Positions 7,974 to 16,842 of a stretch of DNA of 64,000 nucleotides are shown here, in pieces (positions within the stretch are counted from its first letter, which is position 1; every line of letters starts with the position of its first letter). Below the pieces are notes generated by a model. It was not told where the DNA came from. It saw only the letters and a list, made by a program, of their open reading frames with translations, and made no database searches. This DNA is from a phage. A program made the position numbers and the translations under genes. The stretch lies in NCBI GenBank assembly GCA_019338205.1, contig GCA_019338205.1_4761.1; one strand, 5' to 3'.

Positions 7974-9773
7974 TCACCCAAGATCAATACGGCTACCATC
8001 AATTTTAACTGTACCAGATGCAATATCTTTAACGCTTGCACCACAATTACGGGACCAGTCACCATTAACCTGATCTGATTTAGTGCCATTGACGGTCATA
8101 TTAAAATTACCCTCAACGGTTAAATCATAGTTACCTTTAATTGTTTCGGTAGTGTTACCCTCGATCATTAATTCAGCATTACCCTTGACGTTAGCCGTCA
8201 AATTGGCGTCAAGCTGCGCGGTAACATCACCTACAACATGCATATTTGCAGTACCTTCAACGGTCTGATTAACATTGCCACGAATAAATTCAGTGACGTT
8301 ACCATCAACGGTTTGCATCACATTACCCATATAATAAACTTGCGCGTCACCTTCAACAACAACTTGCAGATTGCCTTTAACGTTGACTTTGCGACCTTGC
8401 TTAACGATCAAATAATCATCACCTTCAATCTTTTCTACCCTCGTTCCGTCCGGTCTGGTTTCTTCAAATGTACCAGAAGGATGTTTACGATGATAACGCT
8501 CGTGAGAAGGAGTATCATCAATCTCGATAATATGACCGCTCTCTGACTCGTACACATGGTTATATGGATACCTTGCAGAATACGAACTCTTAGGCTCTTT
8601 AAACATGATTCGTGTGTCTTGTGGGGTAAACGGTGCTTCTGGGTCTTCTTCTGCTCTCTGCGTCTTATAGGCAGCAATACGGGCATTTCTCAAACGTGCT
8701 CTCGGATCATCTGAAACAGTTTCCTCTTTCTTAGGAGCAATTACGCCATATGATTCTAAGTTGCCAGTAAGAATAATTTTAGAAACACGGCTGGAGCGTC
8801 CTGGAGTTTGATTAGCCCATACTGATTGACGTAATCCATCATAGGCTTGTTTCCATTCTTCCGCTAACATCGCAGCAAGACTATTCTTAAATTTACCCAA
8901 TCCACCAACGCCCATTTGAAACGCCATATTTTCTAATGCCATACGACGTGAGGCATTACATTTATTATAGACAGGTGCAATTCGTGGATGTTTGCGCATA
9001 TCACGACGAGTCTTTTCTATATCGTCAGCAAATACTTTACTAACTTCTTCGGCGGTAAGTCTTCCGTTTGTAACTTCACGCCCTACCAGCTTAGAAAGTT
9101 CATTATTGATAATACCCAGATCACTGGTTTTCTTATAAATGATCAAATGCCCGATGCCTATTGTCGGATATCCTTCTGAATCAAGATACCATTTCTCGCG
9201 ATATCCCTCATCGCCCCGCAGCATTTTTTCTATTGTAAAATCAGGATTATCATCAACCGGAATTTGGTCTAATGGCTCGTCGTCTGGATTTACTGCAACT
9301 CCAGTGTTTTCATCTCGAATATAGACACTATCAGGTTTTGTTGTTTGTCCGGTTTCTGGGTTAATACCGCCACGAGCAAGAATATTAACATCATTACCAA
9401 TATAACGAGGATATGCACCAGAAGGGTCGCAAAAACCTTCTGTAGTGAGTGGTTTCTCTGTATATTGTCCGGCAATAGTACCCAGAATAACGCAGTTTAA
9501 ATAACGTTCATCTAAAGCCAAACCAAATACCATTGAACCTTCAACAATACCAGTAGGGCTTTGACCTATACCGGAGATCGCCGCGCTTGTAATATCTTGT
9601 ACTGGCGTAATCCATAATAGATCTTCGGTTGGAAGACCTTGAATGTCACCGTGTGCGGATAGCGAAGGATGTATACCATGAATCCTAACCTGAACACGCC
9701 CCAGCATTAATGGGTCTTCCCTGTTTTCTACAATTCCGGTAAACCATTTAACGGAGTTATTAAACATTAGCAT
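7974..9773 (-). CDS. 5: baseplate hub / tail-associated lysozyme gp5
   Basis: 599 aa; T4-lysozyme-like motif DSEGYPTIGIGHLI; C-terminal beta-helix repeats (VxGxxxxx); N-terminal OB-fold region; T4 gp5 is 575 aa. Confidence 0.9.
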   Translation of the reverse strand: MLMFNNSVKWFTGIVENREDPLMLGRVQVRIHGIHPSLSAHGDIQGLPTEDLLWITPVQDITSAAISGIGQSPTGIVEGSMVFGLALDERYLNCVILGTIAGQYTEKPLTTEGFCDPSGAYPRYIGNDVNILARGGINPETGQTTKPDSVYIRDENTGVAVNPDDEPLDQIPVDDNPDFTIEKMLRGDEGYREKWYLDSEGYPTIGIGHLIIYKKTSDLGIINNELSKLVGREVTNGRLTAEEVSKVFADDIEKTRRDMRKHPRIAPVYNKCNASRRMALENMAFQMGVGGLGKFKNSLAAMLAEEWKQAYDGLRQSVWANQTPGRSSRVSKIILTGNLESYGVIAPKKEETVSDDPRARLRNARIAAYKTQRAEEDPEAPFTPQDTRIMFKEPKSSYSARYPYNHVYESESGHIIEIDDTPSHERYHRKHPSGTFEETRPDGTRVEKIEGDDYLIVKQGRKVNVKGNLQVVVEGDAQVYYMGNVMQTVDGNVTEFIRGNVNQTVEGTANMHVVGDVTAQLDANLTANVKGNAELMIEGNTTETIKGNYDLTVEGNFNMTVNGTKSDQVNGDWSRNCGASVKDIASGTVKIDGSRIDLG

Positions 9774-10394: not shown

Positions 10395-11090
10395 ATGGAC
10401 TATCAAAAACATTATGATCGATTAATTGAACGCGCAAAGCATAGAACGCTTGAAGGATATAAAGAAAAACATCATATTATTCCTCGTTGTATGGGAGGCG
10501 ATGATAGTCCAGAAAATATAGTTGAGTTAACGGGGTCTGAACATTTTGTTGCTCATCAACTTTTAGCAAAAATGCATCCAACACATCACGGAATTGTACA
10601 TGCGGCGAAAATATTGATGGGGTCTACCAACTATAACAATAAACAATTTGAGTGGGTAAGAAAACTTGCGGTCGAGACTTCAAGAAAATTTCATACAGGA
10701 AGAAAAAGATCCGAAGAGACTAGACGCAGAATATCAGAAGCAACTAAAGGAAAGAGAAAAGGAATTAAATTATCTGAGGAACATCGACAGAAATTATCTG
10801 CTTCATTAAAAGGTAGAGTGTTTACAGAAGAACATAAAAGAAATATTGCGTCAAGAGAAATTACACAAGAATGGAGAGACAACATCTCTAAAGCGGGTAA
10901 GGGTAGAAAGTTGTCACAAGAAAACGTAGAGAAATGGAAACGTATTCATAACACGCCAGAAATGAAACAAAAATATAGTGAATTGTCAAAGTCTCGTCCG
11001 TATTTCACCTGTCCTCATTGTGAAAAAACAGCCAATCAGGGAAATTATGTTAGATGGCATGGTGACAACTGCAAGAAGAAGGTGGTATAA
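10395..11090 (+). CDS. HNH homing endonuclease with NUMOD3-like repeats
   Basis: HHIIPRCMGGDDSPENIVELTGSEHFVAH HNH motif; repeated GRKRSEETRRRIS / GIKLSEEHRQKLS modules; C-terminal CxxC...CxxxxxC. Confidence 0.8.
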   Translation: MDYQKHYDRLIERAKHRTLEGYKEKHHIIPRCMGGDDSPENIVELTGSEHFVAHQLLAKMHPTHHGIVHAAKILMGSTNYNNKQFEWVRKLAVETSRKFHTGRKRSEETRRRISEATKGKRKGIKLSEEHRQKLSASLKGRVFTEEHKRNIASREITQEWRDNISKAGKGRKLSQENVEKWKRIHNTPEMKQKYSELSKSRPYFTCPHCEKTANQGNYVRWHGDNCKKKVV

Positions 11091-11574: not shown

Positions 11575-12396
11575 ATGAGCGTATTTGAAATAATCACAGA
11601 AGACGAAAAGCCGTCTCCCCAAAAACGAAAGTCTAAACAGTGGGTCGAATTGGGTGTAGAATTTGCGAAAGCAAAAGCCAAAGGCATGACAGCTAAAGCA
11701 TTTGCAGATTCTAAGGGAATAGCCTATGCGACTTTCACTAAAAGTATGTCTCGTTATGCCAGCGAAATTAAAACAGCAATAGAAGTTGAAAAACTAAAAG
11801 GGAAAAGTGCAAAGGGTCTCAATAAGCAGCAACGCGCAATGATGATGATTAATGATTTTCGTGCGTCTATGCGTGCTGTATCAAAGAGTCGTCCTAAAGA
11901 AAAATCACAGGAATGGTTTACTAAAACAATAAAAGCGGGAATAAAGGGACACCAGATTGTAAAACCGCAAGTAGGGCGAATCTATACCTTTATGTATGAT
12001 GCTAAGTATAAAGACACTTTGCCATATTGGGATGTTTTCCCACTGATCATTTGTCTGGGTGATTCTAAGACAAAGGCGGGTAATACTGTAATGCTGGGTC
12101 TTAACTTACACTATGTAACGCCTAAAGCCCGTCAGCAGTTTCTGGAAGCACTTTTAAAGCAATATGCATCTACTCCTACCTTGAGTAATAAAACACGCTT
12201 AAAAATCAAATGGAGCGATGTAAAAGGTATGCGTGGTAGTGACCACATGATCAAAGCATATCTACCGGGACACATTAAAACAAAACTTGTTGAGATTAGC
12301 CCGAAAGACTGGAGCAATATTATCTACCTTAACACATATAAATTTGTTTCTAAAGGTAAAAACTATGATGCAAGGAAGGTGTGGAAGGATGCTTAA
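11575..12396 (+). CDS. 2: DNA end protector protein gp2
   Basis: 273 aa versus T4 gp2 274 aa; synteny 4-2-3; SD GAGGAT. Confidence 0.55.
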   Translation: MSVFEIITEDEKPSPQKRKSKQWVELGVEFAKAKAKGMTAKAFADSKGIAYATFTKSMSRYASEIKTAIEVEKLKGKSAKGLNKQQRAMMMINDFRASMRAVSKSRPKEKSQEWFTKTIKAGIKGHQIVKPQVGRIYTFMYDAKYKDTLPYWDVFPLIICLGDSKTKAGNTVMLGLNLHYVTPKARQQFLEALLKQYASTPTLSNKTRLKIKWSDVKGMRGSDHMIKAYLPGHIKTKLVEISPKDWSNIIYLNTYKFVSKGKNYDARKVWKDA

Positions 12397-13417
12397 TATT
12401 AATTCCGTGGGGAGCAATCCCCACGTTTATTATCTTCGTCAACCGGAAGAAATAGAATACAGAGTAAACAAGGTAACAAAATCTCCTAGAGAATTTGCGG
12501 ATAAAGTTATTGAAAGGTGTAAACTTGTCGACCATACATTCTTAGGATTTTCTGGAGAATGGAAAGGAAAATTGACTAGATCTGTTATCCAATGCAATAA
12601 GCATGGAACTGTCTATGATGTTTCCAGTAATAGTTTCTATGCTAAAAAGGTTATTGTTGGTTGCCCTCAATGTAGGGGAGTTATGACAGAAGAGGAAGCA
12701 ACCAAATTCATTGAAGAAAAATGTAAAGATCTTGATTATGAATTTTTGGGATTTGTTGGTGGCTGGAAATCACAAATTACTAAGATGATTCTTAGATGCA
12801 AGAAACATGACCATATTTGGAAGAATACAAAGTTCTTTGATTTTAAAAATCATGGTACATGTGGTTGTAAGAAATGTGCGGCTGAACAATTTAAGACGGA
12901 ATATGTCGTTCCCGTGGAAGATGCACTATCTAGAATAGAAGATAAATGTAAAAAGTTAGGGTATGAATATATAGGTGTCGATGGTGAATGGATAGGTACT
13001 GCAAATTCATGGATAAAACTTAAATGTACAAAACATGACGCAGAATTTTCTGTAAGATATTGTACGTTCAACAGAAATGCTAAAGGGTGTCCGAAATGTA
13101 GTTCTTCTGGCTATCGTCCATCTGAGATGGGATATTTTTATATCCAGACGTTAGATGATAAATTTATAAAGTTTGGTGTAACCAATGAATTACCGGAAAC
13201 CAGAATGAAACAACATATGCAGAAATCTAAGTTTGTTCACAAACTTGTTTACGTCAAACAAAGTGTTGATGGCTGGATTCCGTGGGAACTTGAAAAGGAA
13301 ATAAAGAGAACTTATCATTGTGGCGTTGTTGATAAATCCATGTTGAAAGATGGATACACAGAAACTTTACCAATCACGGAACTTGATAACATAATTAAAT
13401 TAGCTGATACATATTAA
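12389..13417 (+). CDS. putative endonuclease: three tandem Zn-ribbon-like repeats plus C-terminal GIY-YIG/T5orf172-like domain
   Basis: three ~57-aa repeats each with CxKH...GCPxC; C-terminal GYFYIQ...KFGVT...R..QH; inserted between genes 2 and 3; start taken at ATG 12389. Confidence 0.55.
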   Translation: MLNINSVGSNPHVYYLRQPEEIEYRVNKVTKSPREFADKVIERCKLVDHTFLGFSGEWKGKLTRSVIQCNKHGTVYDVSSNSFYAKKVIVGCPQCRGVMTEEEATKFIEEKCKDLDYEFLGFVGGWKSQITKMILRCKKHDHIWKNTKFFDFKNHGTCGCKKCAAEQFKTEYVVPVEDALSRIEDKCKKLGYEYIGVDGEWIGTANSWIKLKCTKHDAEFSVRYCTFNRNAKGCPKCSSSGYRPSEMGYFYIQTLDDKFIKFGVTNELPETRMKQHMQKSKFVHKLVYVKQSVDGWIPWELEKEIKRTYHCGVVDKSMLKDGYTETLPITELDNIIKLADTY

Positions 13418-13891: not shown

Positions 13892-14482
13892 ATGTCTAAT
13901 CTCTTTAACTATGCTAACCCCAGCAACTGGCAGATCAATATTCCAGATGGACAACTAACAAAAGGCTTTACTTTAAATGCTCAAGGTGTTACACTTCCGG
14001 CTATAACCATTCCACCGACTAAGCAAGTTGCTGGTCAATATGGTTTGGCGGTCGCTGATTATCCGTCTAGTCATGTGGAGTTTGACCCGTTGGTAGTCCG
14101 GTTTATTGTCGATGAGCATTTGGAAAGCTATCTAAACCTTTACACATGGATGCTTTCTATAGTAGACTACAATAACGGTAACTCCACTGCGTGGAAGGAT
14201 TCAATGCCGGAAGCCGTTCAAGTTCACATGATGGACAACGAACGCCGTAACATTGTGTGCACTTTTAACTTTTATGGTTGTTGGTGTTCACAATTGGGGG
14301 AACTTGAGTTAACATACACCGATGATATGCATGAATCTCTGGTATGTACTGCAATTCTTCCATTTAAAACGATGAGCATTGAACGTGATGGTCAGCTGAT
14401 CGTTCCTCGCCCAGCAATTCAGGCGGCGGATCGTCAGAGGGTGGAAGGTATTAAAGCTATGCACCCTGCTTTTAGAAAGTAA
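13892..14482 (+). CDS. 3: tail completion and sheath stabiliser protein gp3
   Basis: 196 aa; position between gene 2 and gene 1 as in T4. Confidence 0.5.
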   Translation: MSNLFNYANPSNWQINIPDGQLTKGFTLNAQGVTLPAITIPPTKQVAGQYGLAVADYPSSHVEFDPLVVRFIVDEHLESYLNLYTWMLSIVDYNNGNSTAWKDSMPEAVQVHMMDNERRNIVCTFNFYGCWCSQLGELELTYTDDMHESLVCTAILPFKTMSIERDGQLIVPRPAIQAADRQRVEGIKAMHPAFRK

Positions 14483-14497
14483 TAAGAGGCTTATATA

Positions 14498-15154
14498 ATG
14501 AAATTGATTGCACTTTGTGGTAAAAAGCGAGTAGGAAAAGATACTGCCGCGTTAATCATTGATGGACACAGTTATCAACTGGCAGCACCGATCAAAGAAA
14601 TCTTATGCGAATGTCAACCAGACTTAGGTCTGACTTATCTTGACTTTGACGGGTTAGGTCGTGACAGAGAAGCCGATCTAGGTATTGATACCTATACCGC
14701 GCATAAGTGGTTTATTCAGTGTCTGCTTATGCTAGATTCGAAGTATGGCGGTAGTTCCTTTACTTGTGATCGTCTGGCTGAGATTTACAAGGTCGTTAAT
14801 GAGATCGGCGAAAAACATAATAACGTCTGGTCTATTCGTCTCATGTTAACCACTCTCGGTACTGATATAATGGTTAACTTGATCAATCCGCTTTATTGGT
14901 GTAATCTCTTCGTGAATGAGTTTATGAAGCGCAAAAATGAAGAAGGGTATTTTGTAGTGGTTGATGTGCGTCAGCCTATTGAAATTGCTCTTATGCGTGC
15001 TATGGGTGCTAAGGTGTTGCATATTCAGCGTGATACTGGTATTGTATCGACTCACTCCACCGAAAAAGGAATTTTGCCTATTGACGGTGAAACAGTTATC
15101 ATAAATAATGGCACATTAGAAGAATTTGAAAGCGAGATTCTCGCGAACATTTAA
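14498..15154 (+). CDS. 1: deoxynucleoside monophosphate kinase gp1
   Basis: P-loop CGKKRVGKDT; WSIRLMLTTLGTDIMVN matches T4 gp1 region WSVRRLMQALGTDLIVN. Confidence 0.9.
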   Translation: MKLIALCGKKRVGKDTAALIIDGHSYQLAAPIKEILCECQPDLGLTYLDFDGLGRDREADLGIDTYTAHKWFIQCLLMLDSKYGGSSFTCDRLAEIYKVVNEIGEKHNNVWSIRLMLTTLGTDIMVNLINPLYWCNLFVNEFMKRKNEEGYFVVVDVRQPIEIALMRAMGAKVLHIQRDTGIVSTHSTEKGILPIDGETVIINNGTLEEFESEILANI

Positions 15155-15186
15155 TAAAAAGTTATCAACAAGTAGGAGATGTGAAT

Positions 15187-15447
15187 ATGTCCAATCAGCA
15201 TGAACAAATGATTAATGTCCTGAAAGTACGTCTGTTTGACACTCAAGAAAAGGCCGCATTCTTAGAAGGCCAACTGAAAGATCGTGAGCGTGTATTGATG
15301 GAACTGGTACGCATTCTGGGTATTCAGCCAGACGAAAACGGGACTGTTTCCCTTGATGCTATTGTCGAAGAAGTGAAAGCACTTCTCCCTAAAGACGAAG
15401 CAGCGGAAGACGCAGAAGAGGAAGTAGAACTGATCACGGAGGCTTGA
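15187..15447 (+). CDS. 57A: tail fibre assembly chaperone gp57A
   Basis: small acidic coiled-coil protein; LKVRLFDTQEKAA resembles T4 gp57A; SD AGGAG 8 nt upstream. Confidence 0.7.
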   Translation: MSNQHEQMINVLKVRLFDTQEKAAFLEGQLKDRERVLMELVRILGIQPDENGTVSLDAIVEEVKALLPKDEAAEDAEEEVELITEA

Positions 15448-15449
15448 TT

Positions 15450-15914
15450 ATGACCCCGTTTAGAGAATCCGTTAAAGGTACATATGCGGCGGTTAAATTC
15501 ACTGAGGATACACTAGACCGCATTGAAAAATTGCAGGAGTTCTACGATCTGCCTAATGCCGTTCCTCGTGATAAACTGCATAGCACTATCTTATATTCTC
15601 GTGTCTATGTTCCGTTTATCCCAGAAGAAGGGGAGAAGTTCTTAGGCTCTCTATGCCATCTGAAAGTGTTTGAAACTCAATCCGGTACTAATGCGCTTGT
15701 GCTGGCATTTGAAAGCGACTACATGCAATTCAGACACGATATCGGCACTGCTTTAGGTGCGACGTGGGATTATCCTGAATATGTACCGCATATCACGCTT
15801 TCTTATGATGTTGGTGCGCGTAAATTTGGCACTGACCTAGAGTTCGATTTAGAGATTGTCCGATCTCATGAGTATGTCGAAGATCTGGATCTGGAGTGGA
15901 CGACCAAACTGTAA
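15450..15914 (+). CDS. 57B: gp57B-like 2H phosphoesterase (Acb1-like anti-CBASS cyclic-oligonucleotide phosphodiesterase)
   Basis: two H-x-T/S-x motifs (HSTI, HITL) ~75 aa apart; 154 aa; syntenic with T4 57B next to 57A. Confidence 0.7.
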   Translation: MTPFRESVKGTYAAVKFTEDTLDRIEKLQEFYDLPNAVPRDKLHSTILYSRVYVPFIPEEGEKFLGSLCHLKVFETQSGTNALVLAFESDYMQFRHDIGTALGATWDYPEYVPHITLSYDVGARKFGTDLEFDLEIVRSHEYVEDLDLEWTTKL

Positions 15915-15921
15915 TTCTATA

Positions 15922-15950
15922 CCCCGAAAATTTTTCGGGGTTTTTTGTTT
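15922..15950 (+). terminator. intrinsic terminator
   Basis: ccccgaaaa/ttttcgggg hairpin followed by T-run. Confidence 0.7.
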
Positions 15951-15957
15951 TTAGTTG

Positions 15958-15986
15958 TTGACAACCATAAACGACTATAGCATAAT
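15958..15986 (+). promoter_or_regulatory. early promoter cassette (PeSL-type) TTGACA-N17-CATAAT
   Basis: TTGACA 15958-15963, CATAAT 15981-15986, conserved leader catcgaaacgaaacacac and ggagaatcaaaATG. Confidence 0.6.
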
Positions 15987-16023: not shown

Positions 16024-16404
16024 ATGATGATGATGATGTTTAAAGATAAATTCGAATGTCACTACACCCGTAACTTTGACTTAGTATCCCGCTACTACAT
16101 TCATAAAGAAACTGGCACGCAAGTAGTTCTTGAATCTCACAGCGAAGTAGGATTCGATTCAACAAAAGTAGCAATTAGTGCTCGCTTCTGGGATAACGGC
16201 AAATTTGCTTATATCGCTTGGAACGACGACGAAAATATAATTACAGTAGCTTTCGGTGATGACTACTACACTAAAAAGACTTTCGATAGTAAGCCATCAA
16301 ATGAATACCTGAAAGCGTATGTGCAGCACATGTTCCAACGTGTTCTGACCGGAATGGAAATCAATGTCATGAAAGACATTGTAGACGAAGTAAAATATTC
16401 TTAA
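16024..16404 (+). CDS. hypothetical early protein (starts MMMMMFKD)
   Basis: ATG after conserved cassette leader; ORF track frame. Confidence 0.5.
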   Translation: MMMMMFKDKFECHYTRNFDLVSRYYIHKETGTQVVLESHSEVGFDSTKVAISARFWDNGKFAYIAWNDDENIITVAFGDDYYTKKTFDSKPSNEYLKAYVQHMFQRVLTGMEINVMKDIVDEVKYS

Positions 16405-16470: not shown

Positions 16471-16629
16471 ATGAAATTCATCGGTAAAACTTTTATGTTC
16501 GTAGCTGGTACTCTGTTTACTGCAACTCTGTTAGCTGGTGGCTTAGATATCTTTACTGCCTTTGAAACTTTCGGGTATACTGTAGCATCGGGTGCTCTCT
16601 TCGGATTGGGTTTAGCGATTAGCAAATAA
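16471..16629 (+). CDS. small hydrophobic membrane protein (52 aa)
   Basis: ATG after ggagaatcaaa leader; below ORF-track size cut-off; G/A-rich TM-like sequence. Confidence 0.45.
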   Translation: MKFIGKTFMFVAGTLFTATLLAGGLDIFTAFETFGYTVASGALFGLGLAISK

Positions 16630-16638
16630 GGTGATAAT

Positions 16639-16842
16639 ATGGAATTGGATATGGTTAAAGCAAAATTTATGGGTAAGGATAAGAGCGGTAAAACATTTGT
16701 TATTAATAGAACATTGTTTAGCTCTGACCTTAAGTGGGTAACACAACAATTTGCGGAAGTCAACGAGGCAGTTGTGACATGCTTCGTTGATGGTAAAAAA
16801 GTTTTTGAAATTGATCGTCGTGGGGTGTCTAATGATCGCTAA
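16639..16842 (+). CDS. hypothetical small protein (67 aa)
   Basis: ORF track. Confidence 0.4.
   Translation: MELDMVKAKFMGKDKSGKTFVINRTLFSSDLKWVTQQFAEVNEAVVTCFVDGKKVFEIDRRGVSNDR

Follow-up and report, generated by a model that had tools for sequence, protein, structure and literature searches.

An Acb1-family 2H phosphodiesterase gene at the 57B position of a Krischvirus (RB49-like) phage genome

The DNA analyzed here, hereafter the window, is a stretch of 64,000 nucleotides from a phage (assembly GCA_019338205.1, contig GCA_019338205.1_4761.1). In the region under study, the genes 3, 1, 57A and 57B follow one another and are succeeded by a terminator-like hairpin and a candidate promoter; the positions of these features are summarized in Table 1. 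The ORF listing opens the 57B frame at a TTG at position 15444, and the GenBank record of phage RB49 uses the ATG equivalent to 15450, giving the same 465 nt as in Table 1. The stop codon of 57A (TGA) occupies 15445-15447, and the close spacing of 57A and 57B suggests that the two genes are co-transcribed, possibly with coupled translation. An earlier note on this DNA had pointed to two HxT/SxT motifs (HSTI and HITL) in a protein of 154 aa at the position of T4 57B. Both motifs are present as described in the intact ORF, with HSTI (H44-I47) encoded by 15579-15590 and HITL (H114-L117) by 15789-15800, and the gene order 3 - 1 - 57A - 57B is that of T4.

Table 1. Position of genes, motifs and putative expression signals at the acb1 (57B) locus of the window.
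Feature	Position	Strand	Description
Gene 3	13892-14482		
Second candidate sigma-70-like promoter	14471-14499		Upstream of gene 1; consensus match
Gene 1, dNMP kinase	14498-15154		PF21448
Candidate sigma-70-like promoter	15081..15109	+	TTGACG-17-AATAAT, 10/12; at the 3' end of gene 1 and ahead of 57A-57B; consensus match
57A	15181-15447		PF17594; immediately before 57B
Shine-Dalgarno sequence GGAGG	15438..15442	+	7 nt before the ATG, within the last 57A codons; sequence read directly
acb1 (57B) CDS	15450..15914	+	Intact ORF, 154 aa and stop codon, 465 nt
First catalytic motif, H44-S45-T46	15579..15587	+	CAT AGC ACT; aligns with T4 H44/T46 and FBB1 H44/T46
Second catalytic motif, H114-I115-T116	15789..15797	+	CAT ATC ACG; aligns with T4 H113/T115
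C-terminal segment, residues 144-154	15879..15911	+	EDLDLEWTTKL; contains E144 and W150; from the alignment
Intrinsic-terminator-like hairpin	15921..15951	+	ACCCCGAAAATTTTTCGGGGT then TTTTTGTTTT; 7 nt past the 57B stop; 9-bp stem with 5 GC pairs
Sigma-70-like promoter	15958-15986	+	11/12; after the acb1 terminator, would serve the next gene; consensus match

The hairpin behind 57B, a strong one with a T-run, is the probable end of a gene 1-57A-57B transcription unit. Terminator-like sites, which were called by consensus match only, numbered six in the region as compared with 1.9 expected. Neither T4-type late promoters (TATAAATA) nor MotA-box motifs were found between 13600 and 15450. In T4, 57B is followed by the promoter PE2 and then by ipI (X03016), and the succession of 57B, hairpin and promoter in the window represents the same arrangement. 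Beyond the acb1 terminator, an ORF of 126 aa without a significant family match (16024-16404) and a hydrophobic ORF of 52 aa (16471-16629) precede a gene for Dmd (16639-16842; PF17587, E=1.9e-14), all on the plus strand. Dmd is known from work on T4 as an antitoxin against RnlA/LsoA. It is possible that acb1, the small uncharacterized genes and Dmd form a small anti-defense cluster in the location that ipI occupies in T4.

The window is a Krischvirus genome. A region of 2.1 kb around acb1 shares 98-99% identity with 59 phage records, all of them from RB49-like phages (genus Krischvirus) and including KFS-EC, RB49, JSE, Phi1, GEC-3S and ECD7, the hosts being E. coli or Shigella. The order 3-1-57A-57B is common to the window, T4 (X03016 and NC_000866) and RB49; searching the window with T4 proteins by tblastn returned the same order, and the identity of the neighbors was confirmed by Pfam. 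In the RB49 record the gene is labeled '57B: gp57B conserved hypothetical protein' and is likewise preceded by 57A, gene 1 and gene 3.

An ORF of at most 376 aa is located at 12287-13417 (plus strand), between gene 2 and a homolog of RB49ORF130w, and combines two CapR homology domains (PF21817, E=6.5e-15) with a GIY-YIG/T5orf172-like C-terminus. RB49 has no gene in this slot, and 80% or more of the stretch is covered in only 11 of the 59 Krischvirus records, some of which label it 'endonuclease', 'GIY-YIG nuclease' or 'homing endonuclease'. Insertion of a free-standing homing endonuclease probably accounts for the ORF. A 75-aa stretch at 10395-10604 (plus strand) shows 49% identity to the HNH homing endonuclease MobD of T4 and corresponds to only part of that 259-aa protein. 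A homolog of the T4 lysozyme e is located upstream of gene 4 at 8748-9233 on the minus strand, unlike T4 in both location and orientation.

The window protein is 100% identical to gp57B of RB49, and all ten nucleotide differences between the two genes are synonymous, which fits purifying selection. In Pfam it matched PF23474, 'Anti-CBASS protein Acb1', with 174.4 bits (cut-off 27; E=1.5e-51), the alignment running end to end from protein residues 9-152 on positions 1-143 of the 144 in the profile. All 64 homologs retrieved from a collection of 5.8 billion proteins carry PF23474 and no other domain, and the UniRef name for the exact sequence is 'Anti-CBASS protein Acb1 n=16 Tax=Krischvirus RepID=Q7Y455_BPRB4'. 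No model in PADLOC or NCBIfam matched the protein. The only solved structure reached by sequence search (phmmer against the PDB) is Acb1 from Erwinia phage FBB1 (7T26/7T27; E=1.8e-43, 53% identity over 142 aligned residues). Identity to T4 57B (NP_049750.1), the protein purified by its activity and named Acb1 by Hobbs et al. (2022; PMC9117128), is 47-48% over the full length. The family is characterized and widespread (273 phage Acb1 proteins were counted by Hobbs et al., PMC9117128), and the gene is a member that was known and named before.

The residues that define Acb1 were compared by alignment. In T4 Acb1, the HxT/HxT tetrad consists of H44, T46, H113 and T115, the bases of the ligand are stacked by Y12, W74, F107 and W147, and E141 contacts the adenine N6, which is the basis of the need for at least one AMP; residues 145-152 form the C-terminal lid (PMC9117128). 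The residue numbering of that paper fits NP_049750.1, whereas the older translation from X03016 has one residue fewer, and this was corrected for. Y12, H44, T46, F74, Y108, H114, T116, E144 and W150 of the window protein correspond to T4 Y12, H44, T46, W74, F107, H113, T115, E141 and W147. Both catalytic histidines and both threonines, whose loss on proper alignment to T4 Acb1 would have spoken against the assignment, are thus retained along with the contact residues. Differences from T4 at contact positions are limited to F74 and Y108, which are still aromatic and identical to those of FBB1 Acb1, a protein crystallized with hydrolyzed 3'3'-cGAMP in the active site (PMC9117128). Across 62 homologs the tetrad is invariant, Y12 occurs in 61, position 74 is F or W only, and at position 108 F occurs in 42, Y in 15, H in 4 and W in 1; E144 is found in 56 of the 62 and W150 in 47 of 53 occupied positions. 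A two-residue insertion relative to T4 and FBB1 was considered as a special feature of the window protein and rejected, as positions 130-132 are filled in 57-59 of the 62 homologs; this is the majority state, and it is T4 and FBB1 that carry a deletion. The description of the protein in the earlier note as a divergent homolog holds in a relative sense only: its identity to the two characterized enzymes is about half, and the two contact residues that set it apart from T4 are those of FBB1.

The AlphaFold2 model, built from the homolog alignment, had a mean pLDDT of 91.6. Confidence was low only at the two ends (residues 1-5 and 151-154), and the drop at 151-154 is as expected for a mobile lid. 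The predicted structure is a compact 2H fold with a flexible C-terminal lid. In Foldseek searches against the PDB, the best match was apo FBB1 Acb1 (7T26; TM 0.97, rmsd 0.9 Å), and FBB1 Acb1 with product (7T27) matched with TM 0.93 and rmsd 2.0 Å. The 2H phosphodiesterase of Burkholderia phage BCSR5 was recovered at TM ~0.7 and 16-18% identity. Pfam score, conserved residues, predicted fold and the T4 57B position all support the proposal in the earlier note that the protein is a 57B-like 2H phosphoesterase of the Acb1 family.

What the analysis documents for this gene is homology, residue conservation, a predicted Acb1 fold, synteny and purifying selection. Very probably the gene is the Krischvirus (RB49-type) ortholog of acb1, with a function as anti-CBASS nuclease in infection that is transferred from T4 and FBB1. 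By the same transfer, which extends to the chemistry, the substrate list and the role in vivo, Acb1 would be expressed in infection as part of the gene 1-57A-57B transcription unit and would act as a small metal-independent 2H phosphodiesterase that captures CBASS second messengers. The predicted substrates are 3'3' cyclic di- and trinucleotides with at least one AMP (3'3'-cGAMP, cUA, cAAA and cAAG), and cGG and cA4 should escape cleavage. The ligand would be held in a U-shaped pocket between the aromatic residues Y12, F74 and Y108, beneath the C-terminal lid with W150, and E144 would read the adenine N6. H44/T46 and H114/T116 are the putative acid-base catalysts, with the adenosine 2'-OH attacking the 3'-5' phosphodiester; the cut would fall 3' of adenosine and lead through a 2',3'-cyclic phosphate intermediate to a linear 3'-phosphate product. 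Once the signal is destroyed, the CBASS effectors would stay silent and the host cell would not abort the infection.

Hobbs et al. assayed nine further Acb1 homologs, all of which cleaved 3'3'-cGAMP and cAAA, and the lysates screened in the same study included the RB49-type phage vB_EcoM-G2494 (PMC9117128), the acb1 of which has 99.1% nucleotide identity to the window gene. Literature searches pairing Acb1 with RB49 or Krischvirus brought up no experiment, biochemical or genetic, on the Krischvirus protein. MM02 gp156, identified as Acb1 (PMC12657230), was considered as a Krischvirus Acb1 and rejected, as Bas46/47 ('MM02-like') are the closest relatives of RB69 (PMC11825919); MM02 and the BASEL phages are all absent from the 59 near-identical Krischvirus records.

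We also searched the 64-kb window for Acb2 and IpI. The T4 proteins (vs.4 and IpI) gave chance-level matches only in tblastn. T4 carries vs.5, vs.4 (acb2) and vs.3 between vs.6 and regB, whereas the corresponding slot of the window (23025-24675, plus strand) has a different content, and no Acb2 homolog was detectable in this syntenic vs.3-vs.5 slot. The slot harbors an RlaP-family nucleotidyltransferase (23115-23813; PF10127, E=2.3e-14) and three tandem small ORFs (23835-24029, 24011-24271 and 24329-24664). The three share the motif ..K[LM]Y.FTP...GYIKDD.GY...C..L....W and resemble paralogs of no known family.

Recent work has added 2'3'-c-di-AMP and cA3 to the signals degraded by T4 Acb1, which can thereby trigger Panoptes guard systems; phages escape from these through acb1 mutation. 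An alternative reading is that the window protein is an Acb1-family enzyme with a substrate profile shifted relative to that of T4 Acb1, which may spare the 2'3'-c-di-AMP/cA3 decoys of Panoptes-type guards or reach additional signals. The divergence of about 50% from both T4 and FBB1 leaves room for quantitative differences in preference, and the ability of T4 Acb1 to activate type I and type II Panoptes implies selective pressure on specificity. There is also a precedent in PDE-9, a 2H enzyme of the T4 Acb1 structural group that degrades 3'3'-cGAMP, leaves 2'3'-c-di-AMP largely intact and gives no Panoptes activation, its specificity residing in the enzyme core. With no Acb2 homolog in the window or the syntenic slot, Acb1 may moreover carry more of the anti-CBASS load. 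Against this, each of the nine named positions for ligand contact and catalysis is preserved, F74 and Y108, which set the protein apart from T4, are shared with FBB1 Acb1, an enzyme that binds and cleaves 3'3'-cGAMP, the protein agrees with the family consensus along its whole length, the 130-132 segment included, and nothing in its sequence gives a positive signal for an altered pocket. A shifted profile is unlikely, and a Krischvirus Acb1 that is tuned relative to T4 Acb1 and might also be the main anti-CBASS factor of the phage is an equally doubtful proposition. If true, an acb1 deletion mutant of an RB49-type phage would allow cleaner genetic work on nuclease-based CBASS evasion than T4 does.

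It is less probable still that the gene encodes a LigT-like 2'-5' RNA ligase or 2',3'-cyclic phosphodiesterase acting in RNA or tRNA repair instead of an immune-signal nuclease. This reading draws on the description of PHROG 755 as 'RNA ligase', on the same tag in RefSeq for 57B of RB49, JSE, KFS-EC and even T4, and on weak Pfam matches to 2_5_RNA_ligase2 and LigT_PEase, along with LigT structures among the fold-search matches. The Pfam matches remain below their cut-offs (19.4 as compared with 27 bits for PF13563 and 14.1 as compared with 23.3 for PF02834), in contrast to the score for Acb1, and E. coli LigT (5LDI) and other cellular 2H enzymes were recovered only at TM ~0.5, rmsd 6-7 Å and 11-12% identity, far from the match to Acb1. 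LigT-type 2H enzymes (PF02834 and PF13563) share the superfamily fold and the two HxT/S motifs but lack the Acb1-type aromatic cage and C-terminal lid, whereas the residues contacting the bases of the cyclic nucleotide are conserved in the window protein. As T4 57B has been shown to be a cyclic-oligonucleotide nuclease under the same 'RNA ligase' label (PMC9117128), the label is a carry-over at the level of the superfamily, and the LigT family is the source of this misleading annotation.

That acb1 is an inactive relic or a decaying gene, kept only by its operon position behind 57A, is the least credible reading and can be set aside: frameshifted copies in two of the 59 Krischvirus records (Cognac and TB34) and the dispensability and natural disruption of acb1 in the T4-like phage Bas43 are outweighed by an intact window copy with all catalytic residues, a protein that keeps 99% identity or more across 56 phage records with nucleotide identity dropping to 97%, the ten synonymous and zero non-synonymous differences from RB49, and the resemblance of both frameshifts to assembly errors. 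In Cognac (MZ504877.1), a 1-nt deletion in a T-run splits acb1 into ORFs of 64 and 82 aa, and in TB34 (OX001802.1), the record of which has 547 annotated features on 165 kb, acb1 contains two 1-nt insertions. A nonsense mutation in acb1 of Bas43 escapes Panoptes. The Cognac and TB34 frameshifts could be natural loss-of-function alleles, like that of Bas43; the pattern also fits assembly error.

The practical value lies in annotation. Relatives of the protein were recovered by tblastn from T4-like phages with many different hosts (1476 phage records), and public assemblies contain the exact protein on 316 contigs. The gene is not labeled Acb1 or anti-CBASS in any of the 59 Krischvirus GenBank/RefSeq records, the labels in those with an annotation including 'hypothetical protein', 'gp57B conserved hypothetical protein', 'RNA ligase' and 'putative RNA 2...'; it should be labeled anti-CBASS nuclease Acb1. 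For phage therapy and host range, acb1 in RB49-type phages predicts resistance to CBASS with AMP-containing signals, and it may also predict sensitivity to Panoptes-type guards that sense cyclic-nucleotide depletion.

Of the known systems, T4 Acb1 (152 aa as compared with 154 aa) has in common with the window protein the position after 57A and gene 1, the catalytic tetrad, Y12, the adenine-reading Glu and the lid Trp. The window protein differs by F74 in place of W74, Y108 in place of F107 and two extra residues near 130-132, and the downstream neighbor is ipI in T4 and another gene in the window. In FBB1 Acb1 (7T26, apo; 7T27, with cleaved 3'3'-cGAMP) all nine named residues are identical to those of the window protein, the differences being another host and phage genus and two residues in length before the last strand. 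PDE-9 from Burkholderia phage BCSR5 (9Q2G and 9Q2Y) has the 2H fold, belongs to the T4 Acb1 structural group and degrades 3'3'-cGAMP, but its lid is N-terminal instead of C-terminal, it spares 2'3'-c-di-AMP, and it falls in a different clade from the window Acb1.
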